This document shows positions 1 to 61,416 of a stretch of DNA of 64,000 nt, piece by piece. Below the pieces are notes generated by a model. That model saw only the letters and a list, made by a program, of their open reading frames with translations. It did no database searches and was not told where the DNA came from. Position 1 is the stretch's first letter, and each line of letters begins with the position of its first letter. Location of the stretch: positions 1 through 64,000 of the IMG/VR virus record IMGVR_UViG_3300020576_004226; one strand, given 5' to 3'. A program made the translations under genes and the position numbers. The stretch is from a virus (lineage: Duplodnaviria; Caudoviricetes).

Positions 1-3000
1 GGTGAAAAGGCTTTCTTGATTATTGACGACAGGGAACACCTGTTCGACGTTGATATGCACTTTGAGTTGACTCTACCGGAGCGCAAGTCGCTTTTGGAGC
101 AAGAGCCGACCGGAATTGTATTTGAATTTGGCAAAAGAATCTATTGGGCTCCATATGATAAGGACTATTACGGGAGCAACCGAAAGGTAAAGATCGCCTT
201 CAATCAGTTCAAATTCATCGGCTCTCCGTTGCTCCAGATAGACATGGAATGGGCGCACCTCGGGGTACATACCGAATATGAGTTGAACAATGGTAATCAC
301 TCCCCTGACGCTTGGTGCGAGAAGGCTAAATTCATTGGTGCAAAAACCATTGCGCTTTGCGACCATAATTCGCTCGGGGGCACGCTGGCTTTCCAACTGG
401 CTTGCGACAAGAAGGGATTGAAGTCAATCATGGGGATGTCCACTACAATAACAAGGCCGAACGGACATAAATTTTCTGCTAAGTTGTTTGTGCAAAACAA
501 GGCTGGCTGGCGCAACCTTCTTCTGATAAGCAAGAACATACATATTGACCAAGACGACGGCGATTCTGTTACAGAGCAATTCCTGTTCAAGCATTCTGAA
601 GGACTTGCTTTTGTGTTCGGTTGCTTCTCGTTGCCAGCGCAGGAAGAGGAGTATGTTGTCATGCAAGGAGTTTTCAAATTGTATGCAAGCCGTTTTCAGC
701 AATGCTTTTGGCAGTTTGATTCGGTGGAGTTTGCAAGTGAGTCAACCGACCTTCGCGTTTTGAATAACTTGAAGTTTCTCAGGAGGGAATGCCCGCTACA
801 GCCTATACTTATCAACGACTCATATTACATAGACAAGGAGATGTGGCTGTTGAAAAAGTACATGAATAAGGCAGGAGGAGTTGCCCACCCGGAAAGCCAC
901 GAGCAGCATTTCAAAACGCTCGATGAGACATTCATAAAAGTCCTTGACCTATTTGGCGCCGAACGGGAAGACGAGGCTCTTGTGTTTTTAACGCAAGCGG
1001 TAGAGAACACCGTAATTTTGTCGGAGACGTGCGATTTTAAAATAGATGTTGGAAGGCACAAACTGCCCAAGTACGAGGTGGTATCGTTGAGTGAGTGCGC
1101 AGGAGACGCCAAACTCCAGCGCATTAGGGAAGCCGCTTTTTGGGAGGGGAGAGGTCTTGAACCCGGTGACATGAGCGGGTTGTTTCATCAATTGCTTGAA
1201 GAAGGTTGGGCAGCCAAATTGAGCCACCTGGATGATGACCAATTCCAAGAATACTACAAGCGGCTCGATACTGAATTGAATGTGATAGTCCCGGCTGGAT
1301 TCATTGACTATTTCCTCATACTTTGGGATTTGATAAGATGGAGCAAGCACGAACGAGGCATTATGGTTGGAAGCGGACGCGGCTCGGTTGCAGGCAGTCT
1401 GATAGCGTTTTTGCTCGACATAACAACGGTTGATCCCATACCATACGGATTGTTGTTTGAACGTTTCATCAATGAGACTCGTGTTTCAGGGGAACGAGCC
1501 ATGCAAGCCGACGCATTACCCGATATTGACTTGGACTTTGAATCAAAGCACCGAGGTGAGGTGAAGCGATATTTGGAATACAAGTATGGGAAGGACTTTG
1601 TCTGCTCTATTGGGGCTTATGGCAGAATGAAGGTCAAGTCAGGCGTGAAGGACTTCGCCAAAATAAAGGGTATTTCATTCTCTGATATGAATTACGTCAC
1701 CTCCTTCATGGATGAGCAATTGCAATGGCTTTGGGAAGATATTTTCAAGTATGCCTTGCAGTCTAAGGTTGTGTACGACTTTGTACAGAAAAACCCGGAA
1801 ATAATCAATGTATTGAACTTCGGCTTGAACCAAGCGACAAATGAATCGGTACACGCTTCCGCTGTAATTATTGTGCCCAAATTCGACCATGAGGGGACGC
1901 CGATGACCATATACGAATGGCTCCCTGTCAAGAAGATGAAAGGCCAAGACGGTGCTTCGATAATTGTGAGCCAATGGGAGGGGAAATATACCGACCGTGG
2001 AGGCTATTTGAAGGAGGACATACTTGGGCTCGACCAACTCGACAAGTTCCACCGCATCAAAGACATAATCATTGCCCAACTGGGTCAAGATGTCATACTC
2101 GAGGATATACCATTCGACGACCATCAAGTGTACAAGGCTTTTGGTAAGGGATGGGTTGAGGACGTGTTCCAATTCGGCTCTGACGGCTTGCGCTCCTACT
2201 CAATACGTTCCAAGCCGAAAGACATTGAGCACTTGATAGCAATGAACGCTCTGTACCGTCCTGGACCGATGTCAAGCAACGCTCACACCGACTTCGCCGA
2301 TATTTTGAACGGCAAGAAGGAGCCAACATATGACTACATGCTCCAGGAGGTTACGGAGCCAACGCTCGGGCTGTACGTTTACCAAGAGCAAATCATGAAG
2401 GCTGTAGTGGTTTTGGGAGGGCTTTCGCTTGTCGAGGCAGACAATTTCCGAACAGCGATCAAGAAGTTCGACAAGGCTAAAATGGCAGCTTACCAGGAGA
2501 AGTTTATTGCAGGCGCCATTGAGCGAGGTTGCCCCGATGACGAGGCAAAATCCATATGGGCTAAACTCCTGCGGTTCTCCGGTTACGGCTTCAACAAGTC
2601 TCACTCGGCGGCTTACTCAATCATGTCATATTGGAGCATGTGGCTGAAGGTTCACTACCCTGTTCCGTTCTGGGCTGCTTCACTGCAATTCAGCCGGGAC
2701 ACTCAAATTCCATACAGGATTTTTGAGATGTCTAAGGTCAATGGAGACATAAAGGTTGTTCCTCCCGATATCAATCATTCTACAAATGAATTTGCTTGTG
2801 ACATACCTTCAAAAACCATATTCTGGTCGCTGACAAAAATCAAAGGCATAGCAGAGAACGGCTTCAACAAAATCATGGCAGAACGGGAAAGAAGCCCATT
2901 CAAATCGGTTGAGGATTTTTTAAAGAGGATGAAGGGTACTGGAATGGGCAAGAGCAAGGCTTTGAGCCTCATTTTATCGGGGTGCTTTGATTCAGCTGAG

Positions 3001-3507
3001 GACATAAAGAAGCCTACAGACCGCATCCGAATCATCAACAAATTGTTTGAGTTGGAAAAGAGCGCAGTACCCGAAGAGTTCAACAGCAAGCAAATTGAGA
3101 AGGAGTATTTTTGGATTATGCTCCAGAGGGATTTGACAGGGTTTGGGGATATTGATTACCCTCACTTGATAGAACAAGTCAACAGAGTTTACACAACATA
3201 TTACACGAAAGCCGAGGATATACCTCTCGTGCGCTCCGGCAAAGAAGTCGTTGTCGCTGGCCAAATAGATGTCATAAGGCCGCGCACCGGGAAAAGAGGC
3301 AAATTTGCTGAAGTACGCATAAGAAACAACAACGGATTCATTGATGTTTTGATGTGGAACGAGGCTTGGGAGAAATATGGTAAAGCGGTCAAAGAGGCTT
3401 GGGAGAACAAAAGCCTTGTGTGTTTGCGTGGTCAAGTCAAAATGGATGATTACCGAGGCTTCAATTGTGTTTACTCTAACGAAAAAACAAGGTTCTTAAT
3501 TCTATGA
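1..3507 (+). CDS. dnaE: DNA polymerase III alpha subunit (phage DnaE); frame open to the window start, probably 5'-partial
   Basis: PHP motifs HLGVHTEY and LCDHNSLGG; GSGRGSVAGSLIAFLLDIT; catalytic LPDIDLDF; KEDILGL; GYGFNKSHSAAY; C-terminal OB fold. No stop between positions 1 and 16. Confidence 0.97.
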   Translation, partial: GEKAFLIIDDREHLFDVDMHFELTLPERKSLLEQEPTGIVFEFGKRIYWAPYDKDYYGSNRKVKIAFNQFKFIGSPLLQIDMEWAHLGVHTEYELNNGNHSPDAWCEKAKFIGAKTIALCDHNSLGGTLAFQLACDKKGLKSIMGMSTTITRPNGHKFSAKLFVQNKAGWRNLLLISKNIHIDQDDGDSVTEQFLFKHSEGLAFVFGCFSLPAQEEEYVVMQGVFKLYASRFQQCFWQFDSVEFASESTDLRVLNNLKFLRRECPLQPILINDSYYIDKEMWLLKKYMNKAGGVAHPESHEQHFKTLDETFIKVLDLFGAEREDEALVFLTQAVENTVILSETCDFKIDVGRHKLPKYEVVSLSECAGDAKLQRIREAAFWEGRGLEPGDMSGLFHQLLEEGWAAKLSHLDDDQFQEYYKRLDTELNVIVPAGFIDYFLILWDLIRWSKHERGIMVGSGRGSVAGSLIAFLLDITTVDPIPYGLLFERFINETRVSGERAMQADALPDIDLDFESKHRGEVKRYLEYKYGKDFVCSIGAYGRMKVKSGVKDFAKIKGISFSDMNYVTSFMDEQLQWLWEDIFKYALQSKVVYDFVQKNPEIINVLNFGLNQATNESVHASAVIIVPKFDHEGTPMTIYEWLPVKKMKGQDGASIIVSQWEGKYTDRGGYLKEDILGLDQLDKFHRIKDIIIAQLGQDVILEDIPFDDHQVYKAFGKGWVEDVFQFGSDGLRSYSIRSKPKDIEHLIAMNALYRPGPMSSNAHTDFADILNGKKEPTYDYMLQEVTEPTLGLYVYQEQIMKAVVVLGGLSLVEADNFRTAIKKFDKAKMAAYQEKFIAGAIERGCPDDEAKSIWAKLLRFSGYGFNKSHSAAYSIMSYWSMWLKVHYPVPFWAASLQFSRDTQIPYRIFEMSKVNGDIKVVPPDINHSTNEFACDIPSKTIFWSLTKIKGIAENGFNKIMAERERSPFKSVEDFLKRMKGTGMGKSKALSLILSGCFDSAEDIKKPTDRIRIINKLFELEKSAVPEEFNSKQIEKEYFWIMLQRDLTGFGDIDYPHLIEQVNRVYTTYYTKAEDIPLVRSGKEVVVAGQIDVIRPRTGKRGKFAEVRIRNNNGFIDVLMWNEAWEKYGKAVKEAWENKSLVCLRGQVKMDDYRGFNCVYSNEKTRFLIL

Positions 3508-4190
3508 AAAACACCATCACACGACGCATGTTATCGGGCGACTTTGACCGTCTGTTCGATACTATCCGCTGGAACAGTAGCCACTTTACTCACCAGCGTG
3601 AAAATCTCGCTTCACACCAATACATGGTTGGAGTTTTGGCGAACGCATTGGCCACTGACCTTTCGTTCGCTCCGGAGTATCGCTTGAATGTTCTTGAATA
3701 CGCTTTGTACCACGACTGGGATGAGATATTCACTGGCGACATAGGCCACGCCGTAAAATACAATACTCATAATGGACCAATTTTGCGCGACACCATTGAT
3801 CAATTGGTCGACTTTACAGCGAAGAAGGAATTCATTGAATCTGCCACTGACGAATCAGAAGTTTTGATTGGACGGGTTTTGAATGGAGAACACGGATACG
3901 CTCCAAGCATACCTATGCTTTCAAAGGTTTGCGATTGGCTTAGCATGCTATTCTTTTGCGTCCGGGAAACTCGGCTTGGTAACACCTATTTCCAAGAAAA
4001 ATTGGTTTATTGTTCCAATTCAACGCTCGGTGCTATCGACAGATTTTGGGAGCAATTCAAGATTGACGTGACCGAAAATGACGCATTCATCACGGTTTTC
4101 GAACCGGATGAGGAGATCATGCAAGAATTGATTGATATCATCAAAGAAATCACTCAATCTACATTACAAGTCGAAATAAAGCAAATATGA
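3504..4190 (+). CDS. HD-domain nucleotide phosphohydrolase (YfbR-like)
   Basis: IRW...ENLASHQYMV...YALYHDWDEIFTGDIGHAVKY...SKVCDWLS matches the YfbR-type HD layout. Confidence 0.85.
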   Translation: MKNTITRRMLSGDFDRLFDTIRWNSSHFTHQRENLASHQYMVGVLANALATDLSFAPEYRLNVLEYALYHDWDEIFTGDIGHAVKYNTHNGPILRDTIDQLVDFTAKKEFIESATDESEVLIGRVLNGEHGYAPSIPMLSKVCDWLSMLFFCVRETRLGNTYFQEKLVYCSNSTLGAIDRFWEQFKIDVTENDAFITVFEPDEEIMQELIDIIKEITQSTLQVEIKQI

Positions 4191-4888
4191 ACTTCGCATT
4201 CTATGGCCGCATCAACGCTGGCAAAGACACAGCAGCAAACATGATGTTTTTCGCTCTTACCTATTGGAAAAAGGGCATTCACAAAAACACTGCTCTTGGC
4301 CAGCCCAATCTCGAAACGATGTGTCAATTCTTTGGCTCTGATTTTGAAAGGGCTAATTTTCATGGAATGATGACCGACGGCAGTCAAACTCCATTCAAAG
4401 ACATAAAGTTTATGTCATTCAGTACTCGCATCCACGAGATGACTGCCTTGTTGACTGGTATACCATTGGAGCAATGCGTTGACCGTCAATTCAAAGATGT
4501 TTTGGTTCCAAGGGGATTTCATAAAACGATTCGTCAAATCATGATTGATATTGGGGAAGGTTTGCGGGCTTCTTACGGCGCCAATGTCTGGGTTGCTCCG
4601 GTGATGAATGCAATTGAAGAAAATCCACGCACCCTTATGTTGATACTCGGTATGCGTCATCCCAATGAGTACTCCGCTTTGGCCTCGTTGGGCAATACAG
4701 TGTTCGTCAAAGTCAAATTGGACTTTGAAGTTGTAAAAGGAGCGGAGTTTGCCGAAGGCTTATTAGAGGAGCATCCTTTTGACGTTGTTCTTGAGAATAC
4801 AAAGGGAGATTTGCGGTTTTTGTGGGAGCAGGTGGTAAACATGGTTTATTATTACGGCGACAAAATAACACTCGATTATGCAAACTGA
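4187..4888 (+). CDS. Deoxynucleoside monophosphate kinase (T4 gp1-like)
   Basis: GRINAGKDTAA P-loop; RQIMIDIGEGLR; NVWV; GMRHPNE. Confidence 0.85.
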   Translation: MNFAFYGRINAGKDTAANMMFFALTYWKKGIHKNTALGQPNLETMCQFFGSDFERANFHGMMTDGSQTPFKDIKFMSFSTRIHEMTALLTGIPLEQCVDRQFKDVLVPRGFHKTIRQIMIDIGEGLRASYGANVWVAPVMNAIEENPRTLMLILGMRHPNEYSALASLGNTVFVKVKLDFEVVKGAEFAEGLLEEHPFDVVLENTKGDLRFLWEQVVNMVYYYGDKITLDYAN

Positions 4889-50299: not shown

Positions 50300-51094
50300 A
50301 TGGCAGACAACATTAAACAAATCTTGAACGTACCCGAGGCCACGGAAGAACAATTGGTCATTGCAGAACAGGAAAGCGAAGGCATTGAAATTCATGACAT
50401 CAATTCTCCTGAAGGCTTGGAGAAGTTGGGCTACATGCGCAAAATTCCATTGTTCATCGGAACCACTGCAGCTCACATGAATTTCGGTTCTGTTGTTGAG
50501 TTTATTCAGCAAAAGTTCCAAGAGGAATACCCGGACGTAATGCCTATCATTATGGACGTGCCGACCTCGCGTCAGGTTGAGAAGTTCATCTTCTCCAAGA
50601 CAAGGGAAATCAACAAAATCATTGAATTCCAGAAACTTCGCCAAAGTCCAGAGAATGTTCAACAGGTTCTTTCGGCTGCGATGCGATTGAAGTCTTTGAT
50701 GGGTGCTAAGCCTTTCCGACTCAAAACTTGCGTTGACCGCACTAAGCACACGTACAAGAACGCTTCAGACTTGCTCGTTCTGATGTACGTTATGGGCTTT
50801 GTTGTACGGTGGAAAGCGGAGGGCGAATGGATGTACCAAATCATTTCCAGCCAAGCAGACTTTGAAGCCTTCGCCCAGCGTCGCATTGAGGAAGCCGCTC
50901 AACTTATTTATGAGCAGGAAATGTACATTGATCAACTCCGCAAACTTGCCAACTTCAAGCCGAACGATGCTGAGATTCTCAATGAGGCTTTGATGCCGGC
51001 TGAAGATGTTGTTCCTGAAGTGGTTGAGAAGACCAAGAAGCCACGGCGCAAAAAGAATGACTTGGTCAAACGCGAAACACCCGAATCAGAATGA
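50300..51094 (+). CDS. Hypothetical protein coupled to TerL
   Basis: ORF from ATG 50300; ATGA overlap with the terminase gene. Confidence 0.6.
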   Translation: MADNIKQILNVPEATEEQLVIAEQESEGIEIHDINSPEGLEKLGYMRKIPLFIGTTAAHMNFGSVVEFIQQKFQEEYPDVMPIIMDVPTSRQVEKFIFSKTREINKIIEFQKLRQSPENVQQVLSAAMRLKSLMGAKPFRLKTCVDRTKHTYKNASDLLVLMYVMGFVVRWKAEGEWMYQIISSQADFEAFAQRRIEEAAQLIYEQEMYIDQLRKLANFKPNDAEILNEALMPAEDVVPEVVEKTKKPRRKKNDLVKRETPESE

Positions 51095-52788
51095 TTGCCA
51101 CTGATAGCAAAACATTCCAAGCACAGATCAATGAACAGGCAACACTAACAAAGTTGACCGAGACAGCCCGCATTGTTGAGGAAATCATAAGCAACCTCGA
51201 GCCAGAGGCACTTTCCCAGATTTTCTCGCAATGCGGGAATGACTTTAATCACACTTACGACATATTGTTTGACGAGTCTTACCGTGTACTTTTTGGCTCC
51301 AGAGGTGTAATCAAAGAAGCGCACCTCGGGTACATGGACAGACTTGCTGAAAATATGGAGGAGACGCTGAGAATAGAAAGCCTCAACTACTTCCTTGCGA
51401 GTGTGTTCCCTGAATTTGATATCAACTGGCACCACTTGGAATGGGGAAATATGGCTCAACAATATAGGAGACTTGCCATCGAAGCACCACGCGACCATGG
51501 CAAGTCTTACTATTTTTCCAATGTCTTCCCAGCTTGGAAAATGTATCGCTACAAGCCCAAAAATGCATTCATTGGCAACCCGAGACCGGACATTTACCTT
51601 TCCGAATTTGGCGCACTGATAACCAACGAGGCTTCACTTGGGGAAGAACTGCTCGAGATTCTGAAGAACTCAATAGAAAGCAACCCTATTTTGCGCGATA
51701 GACTTTACCCAGGCAAAGGTTCAGCCGCCCAAACGAGTTGGGCTATGCGCAAAATAAAGTGCAGGAACGGTGCGCGTCTTATCACCAAATCTTATGGGAC
51801 CAAGTTTCGTGGACGTCACCCTGGATGGATGGTATGCGATGACTTCATGGATGACTCGAGCCTGTATTCAAAAGAACAACGGGAGAAGTTTGTCAATTAC
51901 TTTCAATCGGTCTTGATGAACGCGGTTCTGAAGGAAGGACAAGTCATCAATGTCGGGACGCCATTCCATGAGAACGACCTTTTCGGCGTATTGAAGAAGC
52001 GGAAGGGCTGGAGGGTATTTGTGTATCCTGCCATTACTCCAGAAGGCCGGGTGCTTTGGTCAAGCCGCTATTCATTCCAAGACCTCATGGATAAGCGTGA
52101 CGAAAATGGACCCATTGCCTTCTCGCGTGAGCAGCTGTGCAAACCCATTGTTAGTGACGCTTCAATTTTCCCCTACTCGCTTGTATCCAAAGCCTTCAAA
52201 GGAATGGAGAATTACAGGCTGGTACAGAACCGTGAATCCTTCCCAATAAGGTTCAACCGAGTTGTGACTGCGGGCGACTTTGCTATGTCAGCAAACACTG
52301 GCGCCGACTACACCGTATTCATGACATTTGGCATTGACAATGATGACAACCGTTGGCTGTTAAACTTCTGGAGAGCCAAGGGTAAAACATTCCAAGAGCA
52401 GATGCTCCAGTTGAGGCGTATCAACACCGAGTTTCGCCCTGATTGTATCATGCTCGAGTCAAACCAATTCCAACAGATTTTCGTTCAAGAAGCCGACCGC
52501 CAAGGACTTCCCGTTTTGCCGCATAATACCAACACCAACAAGTATGACATGAAGGAAGGCGTGCCCGGTTTGGCGTTGACATTTGAGCGTCAAAAGTTCC
52601 GCTTCCCGAGGGGCGACCAATTTAGTATTGATGCTACTGACCTTGTTGCTTCAGAATTGGGTTCTATTGCGTATACTGATAAAGGACTTCAAGGAGTTGG
52701 TGAACATGACGATACTGTTATGTGCCTTTGGATTGCCGAATGCAATGTCAGGTATGTTTCGACAGGCTTTAAGTTCTCCACTGCTTGA
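51091..52788 (+). CDS. terL: Terminase large subunit
   Basis: APRDHGKS Walker A; RGRHPG..VCDD Walker B; VGTP; nuclease GDFA..DYT, ESNQFQ, HDDTVMCLW. Confidence 0.95.
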   Translation: MIATDSKTFQAQINEQATLTKLTETARIVEEIISNLEPEALSQIFSQCGNDFNHTYDILFDESYRVLFGSRGVIKEAHLGYMDRLAENMEETLRIESLNYFLASVFPEFDINWHHLEWGNMAQQYRRLAIEAPRDHGKSYYFSNVFPAWKMYRYKPKNAFIGNPRPDIYLSEFGALITNEASLGEELLEILKNSIESNPILRDRLYPGKGSAAQTSWAMRKIKCRNGARLITKSYGTKFRGRHPGWMVCDDFMDDSSLYSKEQREKFVNYFQSVLMNAVLKEGQVINVGTPFHENDLFGVLKKRKGWRVFVYPAITPEGRVLWSSRYSFQDLMDKRDENGPIAFSREQLCKPIVSDASIFPYSLVSKAFKGMENYRLVQNRESFPIRFNRVVTAGDFAMSANTGADYTVFMTFGIDNDDNRWLLNFWRAKGKTFQEQMLQLRRINTEFRPDCIMLESNQFQQIFVQEADRQGLPVLPHNTNTNKYDMKEGVPGLALTFERQKFRFPRGDQFSIDATDLVASELGSIAYTDKGLQGVGEHDDTVMCLWIAECNVRYVSTGFKFSTA

Positions 52789-54890: not shown

Positions 54891-54987
54891 CGAGAAGCAT
54901 GCACAAATGTCCCCCACGATTGAAGAAGTCGCTGCCTTGCTTGACCGCTCGGTAGCGACTTTTATTTTGCACAAGGTTTTTAAGCAT

Positions 54988-55650
54988 ATGGACAATAAAT
55001 ATGTTATATGGTTTTTAGGAGCAAATGCTTCCGGCAAGTCAACTTTGTCTGCACTCATCCAGAGGGAATTGAGCGAACGTTACCCGAGGCGCAAGGACGC
55101 AAGAACTGATTTTGTGATTGATCAAAGCAACGGAGTCATATTGACTTTGACGTCAACGAATAGTGCCAACTTAGGTAAGTTCAATCACCCTGTTCTTTAT
55201 GAAGGAAAGGTCAAAACCAATGCATGCTGCGGCACTGACACGCTCCCAAAGAAGGATTTGATAGGGAGGGCTTTGGAGGTTGCTGGCTCAAATGAAATTA
55301 AATTCATTTTTGTTGAGGGTATTATGGCCACCCGACAATGGGTTGACCTATTCCCGGAAGGCTATCGAATTTTGCTCATATTGCTTGATATTGACATTGA
55401 GAACTGCATCCTGCGCCTTACCCAGCGAAGAAGTGAGAAGTCCGGTCTCGAGCAAAGAGAGGTGCTCGAATCGCTGACCGAGAAGACGGTGGAGAACGTC
55501 ACCGGGAAAATAAACGGCTTCCGCAGGATGTACGATGACCTGGTTTTGAGGCGAGATATTGTAGGAATGAAGTACGCTGTGGACCAAAGTTTTAACAGCG
55601 TCGAGATATCCAAACACATAGCAAATCTTTTAATTCATGGAAAAATTTGA
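54988..55650 (+). CDS. 5-hmdU DNA kinase-like P-loop kinase (copy 1)
   Basis: GANASGKST; LGKF...ACCGTDTL; IFVEGIM; CILRLTQRR; cluster context. Confidence 0.75.
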   Translation: MDNKYVIWFLGANASGKSTLSALIQRELSERYPRRKDARTDFVIDQSNGVILTLTSTNSANLGKFNHPVLYEGKVKTNACCGTDTLPKKDLIGRALEVAGSNEIKFIFVEGIMATRQWVDLFPEGYRILLILLDIDIENCILRLTQRRSEKSGLEQREVLESLTEKTVENVTGKINGFRRMYDDLVLRRDIVGMKYAVDQSFNSVEISKHIANLLIHGKI

Positions 55651-56539
55651 GACCCACGTGCTCATCATCGGGGCTGGCTTGTTCGGCTCCATGACCCAGA
55701 AACTCCTTCGCTCCAAAGGCATTGAGTCATTGATTGTTGACCGACGCGACCCGCTCTCCGCAAGCAAGTGCTCTTCAGGAATTTGGCGTCCAGGCTGGGC
55801 TGGAAAAATTGCTCCGCAAGTTGAGCAAAGTATCCCAACAATCAGCCTTTTCACGGCGATTGACACGCTTCCAATTTATGATGCCGACAAGGACACTGAG
55901 ACAAGCATCGACTTCATTGATTGCAACAACATTCTAAATGAAGACTTCCTGGAGGGTGATGTTATTGGCTGTAATTTTGTTGACAATCGCCCGAACGCCA
56001 AAGTGCGCTCCGTAATTGTTGATGTTGACGGAGTCAAAGTGGAAATTGGTTGCACACAACTCGTCATTTGCGCAGGAGCATTTACCAACGCAGTGCTCGA
56101 GAAACTCAAACTCCCTGTTCTTTACGGGCTTGACGCGCATTGGGGAGCGGTTCTGCACTGCCGAGAGAAATTGACGCAAAACTTCATCCAGAATTGGGCT
56201 CCATACAAGCAATTGTACGGCTTAAACTTGATTCGAGACGGTAAAGAGGTGTCATACTTCACAATGGGTATGTCAGCAAAAAATCCTCCAAAGGGAGGTG
56301 ACAACCGAACGCTTGCCATAGGTGAGAAAATGGAGGCCGCAGCCCGAGGCTTCAAAATGAAAAACATCATTGAGATACCCGAGGGCAACCGTCCTTTCTT
56401 TGCCGAGAAGGACGTTGATTTTGTCAACAAGCATACTGTCAACGTCTGGTCAGCAACTGGAGGCGCAAAAAACAGCACTCTGTTGTGCGGATATGTCGCT
56501 CAACGTCTTTTTCAAGAAATAACAGGCCATGCCCAATAG
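55637..56539 (+). CDS. FAD-dependent oxidoreductase/lyase (DAO/glycine-oxidase-like)
   Basis: IIGAGLFG Rossmann motif; ASKCSSG; VICAGAF; EGNRP; ATGGAKNSTL. Confidence 0.85.
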   Translation: MEKFETHVLIIGAGLFGSMTQKLLRSKGIESLIVDRRDPLSASKCSSGIWRPGWAGKIAPQVEQSIPTISLFTAIDTLPIYDADKDTETSIDFIDCNNILNEDFLEGDVIGCNFVDNRPNAKVRSVIVDVDGVKVEIGCTQLVICAGAFTNAVLEKLKLPVLYGLDAHWGAVLHCREKLTQNFIQNWAPYKQLYGLNLIRDGKEVSYFTMGMSAKNPPKGGDNRTLAIGEKMEAAARGFKMKNIIEIPEGNRPFFAEKDVDFVNKHTVNVWSATGGAKNSTLLCGYVAQRLFQEITGHAQ

Positions 56540-56732: not shown

Positions 56733-57041
56733 ATGGCAAAGGCCACCGACAAAAAGACTGCAAGCAAAGCAGCACCCGCTACCAAGCCGGCATCCAAACT
56801 CACCCCTGACGCAAAGGGCAACTACCCGCACCAATTGTACTCTGTGAAGCAGAAGACTTTTGTTGATCTGGCCAAGAAGCCTCTGCCTGTTTTGACTTCC
56901 ACCGGACGCGGCGCATACATGTGCAAAGGTCAGGATGTTGAAGGAAACACGCTGGCGATGATCGTGAGCAAATTGGTTGCTGCCAACTGGGTTGAACGCA
57001 AACTCGCTGTGTACGCAGAAGGTTCTGAACCGGAAGCGTAG
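56733..57041 (+). CDS. Small basic protein with K/A/P-rich histone-like N-terminus
   Basis: MAKATDKKTASKAAPATKPASK. Confidence 0.6.
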   Translation: MAKATDKKTASKAAPATKPASKLTPDAKGNYPHQLYSVKQKTFVDLAKKPLPVLTSTGRGAYMCKGQDVEGNTLAMIVSKLVAANWVERKLAVYAEGSEPEA

Positions 57042-57127: not shown

Positions 57128-57715
57128 ATGAAATTCAAGCAAATATCAAAAACTGAATTGTACCCTTGGCTGAATTATATCAGCAAAACCTTCCGTGGGA
57201 TAATGCCTCCCAAAGAAAAGAAATTCCTTGGCGAAATTCGGGTTGGGGTTTTGTACAATTGCACAATGGTGGTCTTGGAAGATGAAGAAGTTGATGGTCA
57301 CCCGTTCTTGTCCCTTATCAGTTACACAATCACAAAAAGGTATCTGAACATCTATTTTATGTACACAACTCCAGGCTTCCGTGGTATAGGACTCAACAAT
57401 GCCATTTTGGATTATGTCATGGAAAATCACGCAGCTGAGATCGACCGTATATACGTCATCACCTCAACACTCGACAGCGTGGCGTTCTATTTCAACAAGG
57501 GCTTCAAGTTTTGGGGCTTAGACAAAAACCGTTGCCTTGTCGCAGAGTTTGATATAACAGCAACTGAACAACCGCGCAAGTCAGAGAAGGTGTGTAAGGA
57601 ACTTTACTTGGGAGAGCCTTTGAATGACGAGCGAATTGTTGACGAGTTGACGATGAATCAAAATCCAAATTACAATCACTCCGTCAAAGAATTGATGGCA
57701 AAGAAGATTCTATGA
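57128..57715 (+). CDS. GNAT-family acetyltransferase
   Basis: YFMYTTPGFRGIGL acetyl-CoA motif A; AFYFNKGF motif B. Confidence 0.82.
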   Translation: MKFKQISKTELYPWLNYISKTFRGIMPPKEKKFLGEIRVGVLYNCTMVVLEDEEVDGHPFLSLISYTITKRYLNIYFMYTTPGFRGIGLNNAILDYVMENHAAEIDRIYVITSTLDSVAFYFNKGFKFWGLDKNRCLVAEFDITATEQPRKSEKVCKELYLGEPLNDERIVDELTMNQNPNYNHSVKELMAKKIL

Positions 57716-58674
57716 GCGACACTAAAATCTACAAAGACTTTGACCTTTACAGCCGAGCGTTGATGGGCAGCAATGATGTCGACCCGACGTATCCGGTAAT
57801 CAAGTCAATCGTTGAGAAAGAGGGATTTGACCCTTATTGGTTTTCATTCGTGTATGTAGCGTTCTACAGCCTGGAGACGGCAATCAAAATGTGCCGGGAA
57901 ATGCCAACTCACGAGGCTTGGGACAGTAAGTTGTTTGCTCAAAAGCGGAGCAGCCGAGAGTGGAGCAAATTCGGTCACGAGCGCAGGGGAACTGCGAGGA
58001 ACATCTTGACCCAAATCAATAATTTCGAGCATATAAAGTTGTTCTTGGAATACTTCACAACTCCCACCGGAGAAATTGACCCGAGCCAATATCCAAAAGA
58101 ATGGGCAAAACTACACCAAGACCAAGCCTCATTCAGAGCAGCTCTTCAGACTTTACCGTTCCACGGCGGCTGGGCTTCTTTTAAGTTGGCTGAGATATGG
58201 GAGAAGGCTTTTGATTGGAGTCACTTTGAGATTCCAGACCTTGGAGTCATTGGCCGCGACCCGAATAGCAACGATGGTCCAGTTGGTGGCTTACGTTGGC
58301 TCTACGGAAGGGAGCACACCTACGATGACACTTGGTATGGCATATGGGATGATCTTGGCTCTAAGTTGGCGAGAGCGTGGCGAGTCGACATCGGGAGAGT
58401 TGAGACGTGCTTCTGCAAATTCCATAAGTTGGTAAGCGGCAAGTATTACATTGGTCATGACATACACGAGTTTCACGAGTTGGAGCCTGTATTGGGTCGG
58501 AGGGTTTACCGCTCCATAATGGAAGAACATTTTGACCCGGAAATTTGGCAAGACTTCCACGGTGTACAAAAACAATTCAAATCAGTTTACGCAACCAAAG
58601 GCAATTTGTTATTCAGCAACTTCGCTGACAAACACCCAGAGGCTGACGTACTACAAATTATGTTGGATCAATGA
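57712..58674 (+). CDS. Amino acid:DNA transferase (aGPT-Pplase clade 2)
   Basis: DVDPTY; YVAFYSL; ERRG; GGWASFKLAE; ETCFCKFHKLVSGKYYIGHDI. Confidence 0.85.
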   Translation: MSDTKIYKDFDLYSRALMGSNDVDPTYPVIKSIVEKEGFDPYWFSFVYVAFYSLETAIKMCREMPTHEAWDSKLFAQKRSSREWSKFGHERRGTARNILTQINNFEHIKLFLEYFTTPTGEIDPSQYPKEWAKLHQDQASFRAALQTLPFHGGWASFKLAEIWEKAFDWSHFEIPDLGVIGRDPNSNDGPVGGLRWLYGREHTYDDTWYGIWDDLGSKLARAWRVDIGRVETCFCKFHKLVSGKYYIGHDIHEFHELEPVLGRRVYRSIMEEHFDPEIWQDFHGVQKQFKSVYATKGNLLFSNFADKHPEADVLQIMLDQ

Positions 58675-59042
58675 AAAAGAAAGGAATGGAGGAGGACGTT
58701 GTGCGACTTCTCACTATCAATACTTCAACTGGCAAAGTTAGCAAACACATGCTGGTCGGCTCCAAGCGAGTTTTCATCGATTTGGAGCGTTGTCGCTGTC
58801 ACGTTCCTGGGGAGTCGAAATACCAATACAAGCATCTTGGTGTAGGTTGGAACGACTGCGAGTTGAACGTGGAAGACCCGAGCCTCGTCATTGTATTGCC
58901 TAATTGGCGGGTGCGCTTTGCCCAGAAAATTTGGGAGGGCGTGTTCTGCGACGACTTCGACAGCGGCAAGAATGATACGATATTGTTGAACATAAAAGAC
59001 TTGACCCGTTATGTGGGACAAGGCAAATGGAAGAAAATATGA
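58671..59042 (+). CDS. Hypothetical protein inside the modification operon
   Basis: ATGA overlaps at both ends. Confidence 0.6.
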   Translation: MKKKGMEEDVVRLLTINTSTGKVSKHMLVGSKRVFIDLERCRCHVPGESKYQYKHLGVGWNDCELNVEDPSLVIVLPNWRVRFAQKIWEGVFCDDFDSGKNDTILLNIKDLTRYVGQGKWKKI

Positions 59043-59674
59043 AGATTTTATGGTTGATAGGCTCTATGGCCTCTGGCAAAACCACGCAACACAAGTTGCT
59101 CATCGAGTTGCTCGGCGACGGTACGCTTGATGTCAATAATGGCTGCAAAGACCCGCTCCCTTTTTGCTTTTCAGTTTCTGGCGAGGTTGGTTCGCTTGGG
59201 CTTCTGAAAGAAGGAGTACAAACTTGTGGAATTGACCCGGTTTACGGCGACCTCAAAAAAGAAGGGCTTCGCCGCTCCATTGCGATGGCTCACGAGAAAG
59301 GCGCAGAGTTGATTATTATGGAGGGTGCACAAGCGTCTATGGAATGGTACAAGCAAGTCATTCTACCGCAATACTACGATGCGGAGCTGTACGTCGTCCA
59401 CCTGTCAATATCTTATGACCACAACTTGCAAAGACTCCGGCAACGGCGGTGGCTAAAAACTCACGACACATTGGAAGGCTTCACTGGCTCTGACCAGATG
59501 GTTTTGGAAGACCGGACGTATGACAATGTGCTCGGAAAGAACAAACAATACCGCAGCCTATTCCGGGCATTAACAAAGCAGTCTGAAAAGGACGGCTTCA
59601 AGACTCTGGAGATTGATGCGCTGCTTGATCGTTATCAAATTCTTGAACAAATTGCTGAATTCATATATGCCTAA
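59039..59674 (+). CDS. 5-hmdU DNA kinase-like P-loop kinase (copy 2)
   Basis: GSMASGKTT; SLG...TCGID; IIMEG; NLQRLRQRR; parallels copy 1. Confidence 0.72.
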   Translation: MKILWLIGSMASGKTTQHKLLIELLGDGTLDVNNGCKDPLPFCFSVSGEVGSLGLLKEGVQTCGIDPVYGDLKKEGLRRSIAMAHEKGAELIIMEGAQASMEWYKQVILPQYYDAELYVVHLSISYDHNLQRLRQRRWLKTHDTLEGFTGSDQMVLEDRTYDNVLGKNKQYRSLFRALTKQSEKDGFKTLEIDALLDRYQILEQIAEFIYA

Positions 59675-60365
59675 ATCACTCATTTTCTGCGACGACTCCC
59701 TGAAAGTATTGAAGCGTTTCCCGGCTCGCCACTTCGCTGTCAGCTGCTTCTCTCCACCCTATGGCGTCAATTCCTTCTTTGATATCAGAACCGACTTTGA
59801 CAGCCCAGAAAGCAAGTTCCTCACTTATTTTCAGGAGATCACTCGGGTGTGCGATATCACTGCAATCAATTTCACCCAGTTGCTTGAAGGTGACAAGCGC
59901 AATTCCCTCTTCATTGAGAAATTGATTATCAACGCGGCTTGCATGGGTGTCAACCTTTACGACCGTTGGGTAATTGAGAAGCCTTCGGTGAAGCCGAGGA
60001 GAGGCGAACGTCCTTTGAGCGGCTATGAGTTTGTGCTGCTGTTTTTGAACCCTAACATGACCGAGAAGGACGTTGTTTTGAACCAAGATGCTTACAACTT
60101 CCGTACAAACATAAAGGCTTCCGGACACGCAAACTACAAGAAGTCGGATGAATTCCGTTACACTGGAACCACCCCGTATTTCCCTGAGATTCCACGTCAG
60201 GTCATTTCCATATATGGCAGTGGTCGGGTGCTTGATCCATTTTCTGGCTCCGGTACGACGTTGGTTGAGGCTTTGAAGTTGGGGAAGGATTGCGTTGGGG
60301 TTGATATCATTCCGGAAATTGTTGAATTTTCAAGAAACAATTGCAGACAATATGAAAGTCACTGA
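59667..60365 (+). CDS. Beta-class amino-methyltransferase fold (N4C/N6A MTase-like)
   Basis: SPPY near the N-terminus; VLDPFSGSGTT SAM-binding motif near the C-terminus. Confidence 0.85.
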   Translation: MPKSLIFCDDSLKVLKRFPARHFAVSCFSPPYGVNSFFDIRTDFDSPESKFLTYFQEITRVCDITAINFTQLLEGDKRNSLFIEKLIINAACMGVNLYDRWVIEKPSVKPRRGERPLSGYEFVLLFLNPNMTEKDVVLNQDAYNFRTNIKASGHANYKKSDEFRYTGTTPYFPEIPRQVISIYGSGRVLDPFSGSGTTLVEALKLGKDCVGVDIIPEIVEFSRNNCRQYESH

Positions 60366-61416
60366 TATGCGCGACATAGTTGGCTACAATTTCGCCAACG
60401 GCATTGACCTGAGAAAGCCGCTCGAGTGGGTCGGTTCTCTTCCCAGCCCCGAGGTTGACGTGGATGAAGCGCACCTTGCCACGTTCTTTGAGATCATGAA
60501 AGAACGCCAAAAAATTTGGGTCAGGCGTTCGCTCCTTGACAAACCCGCTCCGTGGACTAAAAATCCCATTCTGCGCGACTACAAGTACACCAATGTGTAC
60601 AGGGAACTTGATCGAGCAAGCCAATTCATGATTAAGCACATCTTGACCCAAGATATGACGATTGAAGAAAAACTGTTCAAATTGCTCGTTTTCCGTTTCT
60701 ACAACCAACCCGATTCTTTCCGGCAGAACGGCGGCTTGATTGACCTTCCGAGTTATGAAAATTGGGACGTCAAAAAGATTTGGGCGCAAACAGTGGCACA
60801 GCGTCAAAAGTCCAACCCTTGGCACGTCGCTTACATGATGAACATGGCGTTCGCTCCGAAGTTGGAGAAGCCTTGGAGCAAGCCTGGACTGTACAAAGAC
60901 TGGGCATACACTCACATTGTATTCAATGCTATTCATAAGGTGATACCCGGCTTGGTTACTGTGCTCGATCAAGCCAAAAGACCGGAAGACATAATTGAAT
61001 GCCTGGAAACAATTCCTGCTGTCTCCACTTTCCAATCGCACGAATTTTACATTGACTTCACATATTTCAGCCGTTACTCGGAAGACGACGCCATAATGAG
61101 TTTTGACGCGAATGATTTTACAAATGTGGGTCCAGGGGCATCGCTCGGGTTGCGGTTGATATTCCCATCAATGCGTCCAGCCGACCAGAAAGCAGGGCTT
61201 TACTACCTACACGAATTGGCTGAGAATTACTTGGGGGAGGACTTTCCGTATCTCGTGTGGAATAAAGATCAAAAGAAATATTATGTTGTACACGAGTACG
61301 ACCGCAATCTGTTCACGCTTCACCAAATTGAAATGTTTTTGTGCGAATTTTCTAAGTACTGGAAAATGGTAATTGGTGCAGGAAAGCAGAGATCAAAATT
61401 CAAACCACATGTGTAA
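60352..61416 (+). CDS. aGPT-Pplase clade 1 protein (5-hmdU modification, helical domain)
   Basis: ERQKIW..R..PAPWTKNPILRDYKYTNVYRELDR; FRFYN; VGPGASLGL; IEMFLCEFSKY. Confidence 0.88.
   Translation: MKVTDMRDIVGYNFANGIDLRKPLEWVGSLPSPEVDVDEAHLATFFEIMKERQKIWVRRSLLDKPAPWTKNPILRDYKYTNVYRELDRASQFMIKHILTQDMTIEEKLFKLLVFRFYNQPDSFRQNGGLIDLPSYENWDVKKIWAQTVAQRQKSNPWHVAYMMNMAFAPKLEKPWSKPGLYKDWAYTHIVFNAIHKVIPGLVTVLDQAKRPEDIIECLETIPAVSTFQSHEFYIDFTYFSRYSEDDAIMSFDANDFTNVGPGASLGLRLIFPSMRPADQKAGLYYLHELAENYLGEDFPYLVWNKDQKKYYVVHEYDRNLFTLHQIEMFLCEFSKYWKMVIGAGKQRSKFKPHV

Follow-up and report, generated by a model that had tools for sequence, protein, structure and literature searches.

The window analysed here is the whole stretch of 64,000 nucleotides taken from a Caudoviricetes virus record (IMGVR_UViG_3300020576_004226), which is 85 kb long and 76% complete and begins inside dnaE. 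It contains a gene cluster, lying between the terminase and portal genes, whose products resemble enzymes of DNA hypermodification (Table 1). From the GNAT gene to the clade-1 gene the stop and start codons overlap; in the case of kinase 2, the ATG overlaps the TGA of the ORF directly upstream. Kinase 2, the methyltransferase and the clade-1 gene were all confirmed as real genes at the coordinates listed.

Table 1 Genes of the modification cluster, in order along the window.
Feature	Coordinates	Strand	Remarks
Kinase 1	54907..55650	+	P-loop kinase; Walker A GANASGKS
FAD-dependent oxidoreductase	55637..56539	+	PF01266 1.8e-9; counterpart of PaMx11 gp47 (glycinyl-thymine lyase)
Small conserved ORF	56733..57041	+	67-88% identical copies in related contigs L002, L004, L005, L006, L007
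GNAT-like acetyltransferase	57128..57715	+	Counterpart of PaMx11 gp48; kept in relatives
Clade-2 amino acid:DNA transferase (AADT)	57712..58674	+	PF18724 4.4e-4, under cut-off
Variable small ORF	58671..59042	+	123 aa; between AADT and kinase 2
Kinase 2	59039..59674	+	211 aa; diverged P-loop kinase, translationally coupled to both flanking genes
Beta-class N6/N4 amino-methyltransferase	59667..60365	+	232 aa; PF01555; between kinase 2 and the clade-1 gene
Clade-1 aGPT-Pplase (Pfam HMUDK_hel)	60352..61416	+	354 aa; PF18723; helix-hairpin-helix, glycosylase-like

Gene content of the cluster

The protein types of the PaMx11-type 5-AcNmdU pathway, namely a kinase, an AADT, a FAD lyase and an acetyltransferase, are all present. 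In PaMx11 the product of gp46-gp50 is 5-acetylaminomethyl-dU (Lee et al. 2021, PMC8989533; structures in PMC11472151). The oxidoreductase aligns by blastp with PaMx11 gp47 (23% identity over 301 aa, E 2e-18). The GNAT protein matches PF13508 (2.5e-4, under the cut-off) and the acetyltransferase family phrog_3810 (5e-4). In the AADT, E231-T232-x2-C235 aligns with the motif of the solved AADT 25qc_A, and in an alignment with M6 gp51 E231, T232 and C235 do not vary. As a member of such a pathway, this AADT would be of the glycine type.

Neither small ORF has a family match. The one upstream of kinase 2 has a 36% identical copy in L004, and the same slot in L005 holds a 109-aa ORF that tblastn does not match to it; no ORF was called there in L002, L006, L007 or L008. 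Searches of the 85-kb, 76% complete record for a source of 5-hmdU, either a ThyA-like dUMP hydroxymethylase (PF00303) or a TET/JBP dioxygenase (PF12851), were empty. The record encodes an HD 5'-deoxynucleotidase and a dNMP kinase. A blastn search of phage records with the cluster gave no match.

The two kinases

An earlier note on this DNA described kinase 2 as a diverged protein with the layout of the kinase encoded upstream, and this description holds. The two sequences are 25.9% identical over 232 aa (E 1.8e-9). The Walker A motif (GSMASGKT in kinase 2), EGAQ, RLRQRR and GKNKQY are common to both, and vary little or not at all among 10 homologues. The model of kinase 2 (pLDDT 84.9) has an NMP/dN-kinase fold, matched by Foldseek to dN, NMP and adenylate kinases with probability 1.0.

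Kinase 1 weakly matches both PF18748 (HMUDK_HMUD1; 22.4 bits, under the cut-off) and phrog_800, the family that includes M6 gp54 (5.7e-9). Kinase 2 matches neither, its sole Pfam match at E <= 1 being AAA_18 (E 0.068); tblastn against phage records found nothing, and a sequence search of the PDB nothing meaningful. A profile of the kinase 1 / kinase 2 family does match PaMx11 gp49, a verified kinase, at 6e-19. In direct comparisons gp49 is 28% identical to kinase 1 and 25% identical to kinase 2 (blastp E 1.5e-4, calculated for a small database). The most likely activity of kinase 2 would be phosphorylation of 5-hmdU in DNA.

A profile search found 97 relatives of kinase 2. Apart from a few that are shorter fragments they measure about 200 aa, and all are too short for a kinase / clade-1 fusion. 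An origin of kinase 2 from a fusion of the SP10 type was dropped because no such fused forms were found.

The clade-1 protein

The clade-1 aGPT-Pplase family was first predicted in 2013, and its Pfam entry PF18723 is at present named HMUDK_hel. The window protein matches this entry clearly (151.9 bits against a cut-off of 25, E 3e-44), and also phrog_2396 (1.4e-45). It does not match PF18724, PF18723 being its only Pfam match, and a comparison of the two clades by hhalign shows no significant similarity (E 0.31). A sequence search of the PDB gave nothing meaningful.

AlphaFold2 produced a confident model (pLDDT 94.2), with a predicted all-helical, helix-hairpin-helix fold like that of DNA glycosylases. 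The closest structure is PUGT (8z2m_A), with an rmsd of 3.7 over 211 residues and a Z of 9.8, a value within the range that helical proteins reach by chance. The others of the top 25 VIA matches are helix-hairpin-helix glycosylases and their relatives (DUF2419, AlkA, OGG, EndoIII and MutY among them). Foldseek against the PDB returned nothing at E <= 0.001.

The residues E327-x3-C331-E332 are invariant in 45 clade-1 homologues, as part of a C-terminal family motif E-x3-C-E-[FY]-x-K-Y. E-x3-C-E is also kept in M6 gp55, in YungSlug (Bacillus), in L108 and G001, and in PaMx11 gp50 as EHTLCE. In the sole local profile alignment found, which is weak, it aligns with the catalytic E-T-x2-C of clade 2 (E243, T244 and C247 in PUGT). 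Compared with that motif, E327-M-W-L-C331 of the window keeps the spacing of Glu and Cys and has Met in place of Thr; the equivalence of the two motifs depends on this one alignment together with the overall structural match. With a PUGT-like predicted fold and an invariant E-x3-C-E, the clade-1 protein looks catalytic.

The literature consulted on these systems, including that of 2024 and 2026, reports no biochemical activity for any clade-1 protein. The earlier note had tied clade 1 to phages with putrescinyl- and glutamyl-thymine, a premise that is now out of date. In the account given in PMC8989533, the proven transferases all belong to clade 2, the putrescine transferase of PhiW-14 among them, and M6 gp55, the clade-1 protein, was dispensable when glycine transfer was reconstituted.

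Many clade-1 genes stand apart from a kinase gene. A kinase lies within 8 kb in only 4 of 80 IMG/VR clade-1 loci (collected by an alignment-based scan; single-sequence scans with the clade-1 protein and with DnaE were empty). Two complete genomes that carry clade 1, G001 and G004, encode no kinase or AADT at E <= 1. A phosphate leaving group therefore cannot be needed by the clade-1 protein everywhere. Pfam scans of the genes flanking the solitary clade-1 gene of G001 offered no clue to its role.

Gene order and selection

The coupling of kinase 2 to a clade-1 gene, proposed by the earlier note, is borne out by the overlapping genes and by the match to PF18723; its grouping of kinase, methyltransferase and clade 1 into a single module is not. 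Among seven related contigs, the methyltransferase was found, besides in the window, only in L005. It is missing from five of the seven (L002, L004, L006, L007 and L008), and there the stop and start codons of kinase 2 and the clade-1 gene overlap directly. The order of kinase then clade 1 is a standard pairing, seen in PaMx11, where gp50 is a clade-1 member directly after the kinase gp49, in the adjacent M6 genes gp54 (kinase) and gp55 (clade 1), and in fused form in SP10 gp186. Judged from gene order, the methyltransferase is apparently a later insertion into the kinase 2 / clade-1 pair, in one sub-lineage.

Compared with their relatives, the three genes have a pN of 0.06-0.24 and a pS of 0.70-0.89 (saturated). 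With few non-synonymous differences and saturated synonymous sites, all three are thus under purifying selection. The reading of kinase 2 or clade 1 as a decaying pseudogene is rejected, because this selection is strong.

A proposed pathway

We tentatively favour a PaMx11-type pathway in which the ancestral kinase 2 / clade-1 pair forms a second branch, leading to thymine, and to which the methyltransferase is a later addition. This translationally coupled pair would be the split form of a kinase / clade-1 unit. Kinase 1, the flavoenzyme, the GNAT protein and the clade-2 transferase would complete the PaMx11-type pathway. The main route would run from 5-hmdU through 5-PmdU, glycinyl-T and aminomethyl-dU to acetylaminomethyl-dU, the second kinase being an extra one as in ViI and SP10, which each have two kinases (PMC5889632).

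We suggest that the clade-1 protein works by base flipping and has a Glu...Cys catalytic helix like that of the amino acid:DNA transferases, and that it most likely acts on the activated 5-hmdU base in this second branch. The likeliest outcome of the branch, in preference to a second amine adduct, would be loss of the activated hydroxymethyl group wherever a site escapes hypermodification, leaving thymine, because in phages with the pair a single hypermodified base occurs beside ordinary thymine and no 5-hmdU is left over. According to PMC8989533, 5-hmdU has two fates at the polymer level, becoming the hypermodified base or thymine, and borohydride reduction of an enzyme-bound methylene yields thymidine.

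Points against a thymine-forming role include the clade-1 genes without a kinase noted above. A hydride donor would also be needed, and no cofactor domain for one is visible. The only aGPT-Pplase of SP10, moreover, belongs to clade 1, yet this phage has glutamyl-thymine (PMC5889632), which fits a transferase.

The methyltransferase

The methyltransferase matches PF01555 well (50.7 bits against a cut-off of 26.7, E 3e-13). Motif IV, S29-P-P-Y32, lies ahead of motif I, LDPFSGSGT (FxGxG), and both are kept in all five members of its subfamily, which is rare, with only five clusters among 5.8 billion proteins. One member, 45% identical, comes from L108, where an unrelated PaMx11-like cluster has the order AADT, MTase, FAD, kinase, GNAT, clade 1 and the other proteins are just 21-26% identical to their counterparts in the window. 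Another lies two genes upstream of a UDG-PolA fusion; the title of a 2026 paper links polymerases of this type with T-modified phages.

If the window phage makes a second modified base, its source could be this enzyme and not clade 1, by N-methylation of the 5-aminomethyl-dU that the flavoenzyme would make. This would be a DNA counterpart of the tRNA step nm5U to mnm5U, and would compete with or follow acetylation by the GNAT protein. We consider it unlikely. In its favour, the enzyme is of the amino-group type with its motifs intact, and since its subfamily turns up again in an unrelated cluster of the PaMx11 kind, it may serve to tailor the aminomethyl base. The UDG-PolA fusion near another member is in keeping with this, as is L009, where a cluster lacking GNAT has an FkbM-type methyltransferase in the slot just upstream of clade 1. 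PaMx11 gp47, moreover, is homologous to MnmC1 (PMC8989533).

On the other side are the absence of the gene from five of the seven close relatives and the homologue in L107, which lies outside any recognisable cluster. In DNA the family normally acts on N6 of adenine or N4 of cytosine, and phages often carry orphan methylases. An N-methylated 5-aminomethyl-dU base is unreported in the literature searched. The protein may serve to tailor the aminomethyl base, or it may be an ordinary DNA methylase of the N6A/N4C kind.

Other roles for the clade-1 protein

The clade-1 protein might instead be a non-catalytic accessory of the kinase, which binds DNA, presents the base or specifies the sequence context. 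The kinases would then be redundant or differ only in site preference, and a single modified base would result. The Pfam name, 'kinase helical domain', suggests such a role, as do the fusion to a kinase in SP10, the adjacency of the genes in M6, PaMx11 and the lineage of the window, and the translational coupling of kinase 2 and clade 1 in relatives. Both ViI kinases act on the same substrate, 5-hmdU DNA (PMC8989533), as this proposal would have it. However, the same source reports that the SP10 kinase is active without its C-terminal domain. Catalysis is indicated by the E-x3-C-E, invariant throughout the family, and by many invariant polar residues, and for most close clade-1 homologues no kinase lies nearby or elsewhere in the genome. 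On balance we find the accessory role rather doubtful.

The earlier note went further, proposing that two kinase/transferase pairs could give two modified bases. The pairs themselves can be recognised, kinase 1 with the clade-2 AADT and kinase 2 with clade 1, each with a kinase and a helix-hairpin-helix protein, and clade 1 keeps the Glu/Cys motif and a transferase-like fold; the glutamyl-thymine of SP10 would also be explained. The step from two pairs to two bases does not follow. ViI and M6 have both clades, and in the description of PMC8989533 each has one hypermodified base replacing a subset of thymidines, the rest being thymine; PaMx11 has both clades too, and the paper names one hypermodified base for this phage. 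This architecture therefore does not predict two. The dispensability of M6 gp55 and the clade-2 membership of the putrescine transferase speak against it too. A second modified base from the kinase 2 / clade-1 pair is unlikely, and the form of the proposal in which the pair uses another amine or amino acid, or another sequence context, is distinctly improbable.

Implications

For the favoured reading, with a thymine-forming branch, it is relevant that the literature consulted on the pathway, including that of 2024 and 2026, names no enzyme that restores thymine from leftover 5-hmdU in hypermodifying phages. The lineage offers a natural test bed, with kinase 1 beside a proven transferase type and kinase 2 coupled to clade 1, and its value is increased by sister genomes that differ only in the presence of the methyltransferase. 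Should the methyltransferase act on the aminomethyl base, the product would be 5-methylaminomethyl-dU or its N-methyl-N-acetyl form, made by a DNA copy of the tRNA route cmnm5U to nm5U to mnm5U, and sister phages with and without the gene would differ in DNA chemistry. The practical stake is new enzymes for site-specific derivatisation of DNA, and new restriction-resistant DNA chemistries.

Comparison with known systems

The best structural matches of the clade-1 model are PUGT (PaMx11 gp46, PDB 8z2m) and YuA Pplase2. They share with it the helix-hairpin-helix fold and a Glu...Cys of the same spacing on the C-terminal helix. The sequence similarity is not significant, the Thr after Glu is replaced by Met, and the clade-1 protein is larger, with a β-hairpin in its C-terminal part.

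M6 gp54-gp55 and SP10 gp186 resemble the window in combining a kinase with PF18723, and E-x3-C-E is shown for M6 gp55. Unlike these, the window pair is split by a methyltransferase, and kinase 2 is too diverged for PF18748 or phrog_800.

ViI has, like the window, two paralogous kinases (gp67 and gp243) and both clades (gp160, clade 1; gp247, clade 2), yet one hypermodified base is described for it (PMC5889632, PMC8989533). Its genes are scattered, to judge from the gene numbers, whereas those of the window form one overlapping chain. The ViI transferase uses serine and is followed by a PLP decarboxylase.

PaMx11 shares with the window the clade-2 AADT, FAD lyase, acetyltransferase and P-loop 5-hmdU DNA kinase, and clade 1 after the kinase. 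The full-length matches are 23-28% identical, and the AADT and GNAT proteins align just locally. What sets the window apart from PaMx11 is an additional kinase, the inserted N6/N4 methyltransferase, two small ORFs and a different gene order, and its cluster lies between terminase and portal, with no adjoining ThyA-like gene.

Gene organisation

The IMG/VR record is 85,321 nt long and about 76% complete, the window being its first 64 kb. In a gene map built from the longest ORFs, nearly all genes of the window are on the + strand. The genes of interest form a chain within the packaging module (positions 51091-65147), flanked by the large terminase on one side and the portal gene on the other. 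From the GNAT-like gene to the PF18723 (clade-1) gene, which is the last of the chain, stop and start overlap at every junction.

Coordinates of the genes discussed, as positions in the window
Feature	Position	Remarks
HD 5'-deoxynucleotidase, YfbR-like	3504-4190	overlaps adjoining genes
dNMP kinase	4187-4888	phrog_139; overlaps HD gene
Large terminase	51091-52788	
Kinase 1	54907-55650	
FAD oxidoreductase	55637-56539	
Small conserved ORF	56733-57041	
GNAT-like protein	57128-57715	
Clade-2 amino acid:DNA transferase (AADT)	57712-58674	
Variable ORF	58671-59042	123 aa
Kinase 2	59039-59674	
N6/N4 methyltransferase	59667-60365	
PF18723 protein (clade 1)	60352-61416	
Portal gene	63480 onward	

In comparison with relatives, kinase 2, the methyltransferase and the clade-1 gene have low pN (0.06-0.24) and saturated pS (0.70-0.89), which shows that selection maintains all three.

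Wherever the contig of a relative extends to the portal gene (L002, L004, L005, L007, L009 and L010), the clade-1 gene is one to three genes upstream of it. Contig L011, where no clade-1 gene was recognised, likewise has cluster genes and then the portal gene. The order in L011:3-2605 is a second kinase-like fragment, a distant kinase 2 relative (37% identical), a GNAT homologue (41% identical) and, just upstream of the portal gene, a 318-aa protein that gave no family match. In the close relative L005 the gene in the terminase position (L005:811-3534) codes for a 907-aa protein containing Hom_end_hint (intein/homing endonuclease) domains, which suggests an intein-bearing terminase.

Kinase 2 and its pairing with clade 1

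The description of kinase 2 in the earlier note, as a diverged P-loop kinase with the layout of kinase 1, holds good: Walker A is present, and the two are 26% identical (E 1.8e-9). Its motifs are invariant or nearly so across ten homologues, and the predicted model has the NMP/dN-kinase fold.

Only 13 word-sharing relatives of kinase 2 were found, and the contigs of four of these were read. In L002, L004, L006, L007 and L008 the methyltransferase is absent, and the clade-1 gene comes immediately after kinase 2, its start overlapping the kinase stop. Among the related contigs the methyltransferase occurs only in L005, in the same position as in the window; one further cluster that bears it is probably on a 21.6-kb contig. 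The old unit is therefore kinase 2 plus clade 1, with the methyltransferase inserted later, and the proposal that all three genes make up one module has to be given up. Both kinases are retained in all relatives whose contigs extend far enough. In L009, which is more distantly related, the cluster (L009:1913-9038) has a single kinase, a flavoenzyme, an AADT and clade 1; a GNAT is lacking, and three GIY-YIG endonuclease genes break the cluster up.

We tentatively propose that kinase 2 and the clade-1 protein would form another catalytic branch, with activated 5-hmdU as its substrate; the most likely outcome would be a return to thymine at those sites that escape hypermodification.

The methyltransferase

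The middle gene of the three does encode a methyltransferase, with motif IV (SPPY) before motif I (FSGSG), the order of the beta class. The subfamily of this protein, METHYLTRANSFERASE, amounts to only five clusters in a large protein collection. A 45% identical homologue occurs in an unrelated phage (L108:151-4567), in the order AADT, N6/N4 methyltransferase, FAD enzyme, kinase, GNAT, clade 1; the remaining members of that cluster are only 21-26% identical to their counterparts in the window. It is thus a PaMx11-like set with the same rare methyltransferase. In L109:124-2344 another homologue (43% identical) is found two genes upstream of one that joins a UDG domain to a family-A polymerase exonuclease domain. 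A third, on L107, has a dCMP deaminase gene nearby but no recognisable cluster around it. In L009 a methyltransferase of the FkbM family is found just upstream of clade 1, overlapping the start of that gene.

That the subfamily recurs in clusters, and that L009 has the FkbM enzyme, suggests that these pathways can include methylation as an optional tailoring step. In tRNA, the MnmC1 step is followed by N-methylation. The flavoenzyme PaMx11 gp47 is homologous to MnmC1, according to PMC8989533, and the title of a 2026 paper links polymerases of the UDG-PolA type with phages whose genomes are T-modified. An extra base made by the methyltransferase, which would be compatible with the other readings, is rather unlikely. 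Alternatively, the protein is an ordinary orphan N6A/N4C methylase.

The clade-1 protein

As had been claimed, the third protein belongs to clade 1, with a strong match to PF18723 (151.9 bits), a family that was aGPT-Pplase clade 1 and is now named '5-hmdU DNA kinase, helical domain' in Pfam. The AF2 model is confident (pLDDT 94.2). Foldseek with this model gave no significant match. In an exhaustive structural alignment the top match was PUGT, the PaMx11 clade-2 transferase (rmsd 3.7 over 211 residues, Z 9.8, which taken alone could arise by chance between helical proteins), and the next matches, DUF2419, AlkA, OGG, EndoIII and MutY, make a coherent list.

Across 45 clade-1 homologues, 38 residues are invariant, including E327, C331 and E332. 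The motif E-x3-C-E-[FY]-x-K-Y is likewise retained in M6 gp55, a Bacillus phage protein, L108, the complete phage genome G001 and PaMx11 gp50. Clade 2 has a motif E-T-x2-C of the same spacing (E231/T232/C235 in the AADT of the window; E243/T244/C247 in PUGT), and the sole local profile alignment between the clades, although not significant, pairs exactly these motifs. We take this invariant Glu/Cys motif, with its clade-2-like spacing and pairing, to be good evidence for clade 1 as an enzyme with related chemistry rather than an inert helical domain. A non-catalytic accessory role for the clade-1 protein is unlikely.

Of 80 IMG/VR loci that encode clade-1 homologues (40-49% identical), only four have a member of the kinase family within 8 kb, and an AADT is present at none. 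Five genomes of about 100 kb each, complete or nearly so, were checked; all have a ThyA-like gene, and none has a match to PF18724, our own AADT profile, PF18748 or PF18751, although the AADT negatives are weak because no control genome gave a match in either search. Two are the complete phage genomes G001 (L095-L100; clade-1 gene at G001:84017-85129) and G004 (L101-L106), both of which carry a PF18723 gene along with a long ThyA-like gene. Searched in full, G001 and G004 gave no kinase-family match even at E <= 1. Since they carry a PF18723 gene, with the kinase family and AADT undetected, clade 1 can stand alone, and its tie to a kinase is not universal.

Source of 5-hmdU

The record begins inside its first ORF, of 1163 aa, and this ORF, the HD 5'-deoxynucleotidase and the dNMP kinase (window 16-4888 region) make up the set of dNTP-pool rewiring genes that hmU phages typically have. 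The adjacency of the last two to dnaE points to a pre-replicative route to 5-hmdU. As to its source, no ThyA-like or TET/JBP gene was found in the incomplete 85-kb record.

Comparison with known hypermodifying phages

The comparison set was CHARACTERISED phages: PaMx11, M6, SP10 and ViI. PaMx11 has an AADT (gp46), a FAD lyase (gp47), an acetyltransferase (gp48) and a kinase (gp49); the next gene after the kinase, gp50, encodes a clade-1 protein that has the E-x3-C-E motif of the window's protein. In M6, the kinase gp54 adjoins the clade-1 gp55. PMC5889632 describes SP10 gp186 as a kinase/clade-1 fusion, and two kinases each in ViI and SP10. In a 2021 study (PMC8989533), each of the two ViI kinases was active on 5-hmdU DNA, phosphorylating it, the SP10 kinase is active without its C-terminal domain, glycine transfer proceeds without M6 gp55, the proven transferases are all clade 2, including the PhiW-14 putrescine enzyme, and 5-hmdU in these phages becomes either one hypermodified base or ordinary thymine.

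The premise that clade 1 goes with putrescinyl or glutamyl products is out of date, and a second amine adduct made by the pair is improbable. Nor does the architecture predict the two kinds of hypermodified base that the earlier note had suggested. From the architecture of the four phages and the 2021 results it follows that the so-called second module is the canonical pair of a known pathway, and that the true extra is one more kinase. We conclude with high confidence that the cluster is of the PaMx11 type, with the canonical kinase/clade-1 pair, a lineage-specific methyltransferase, and a second kinase, a feature shared with ViI and SP10.
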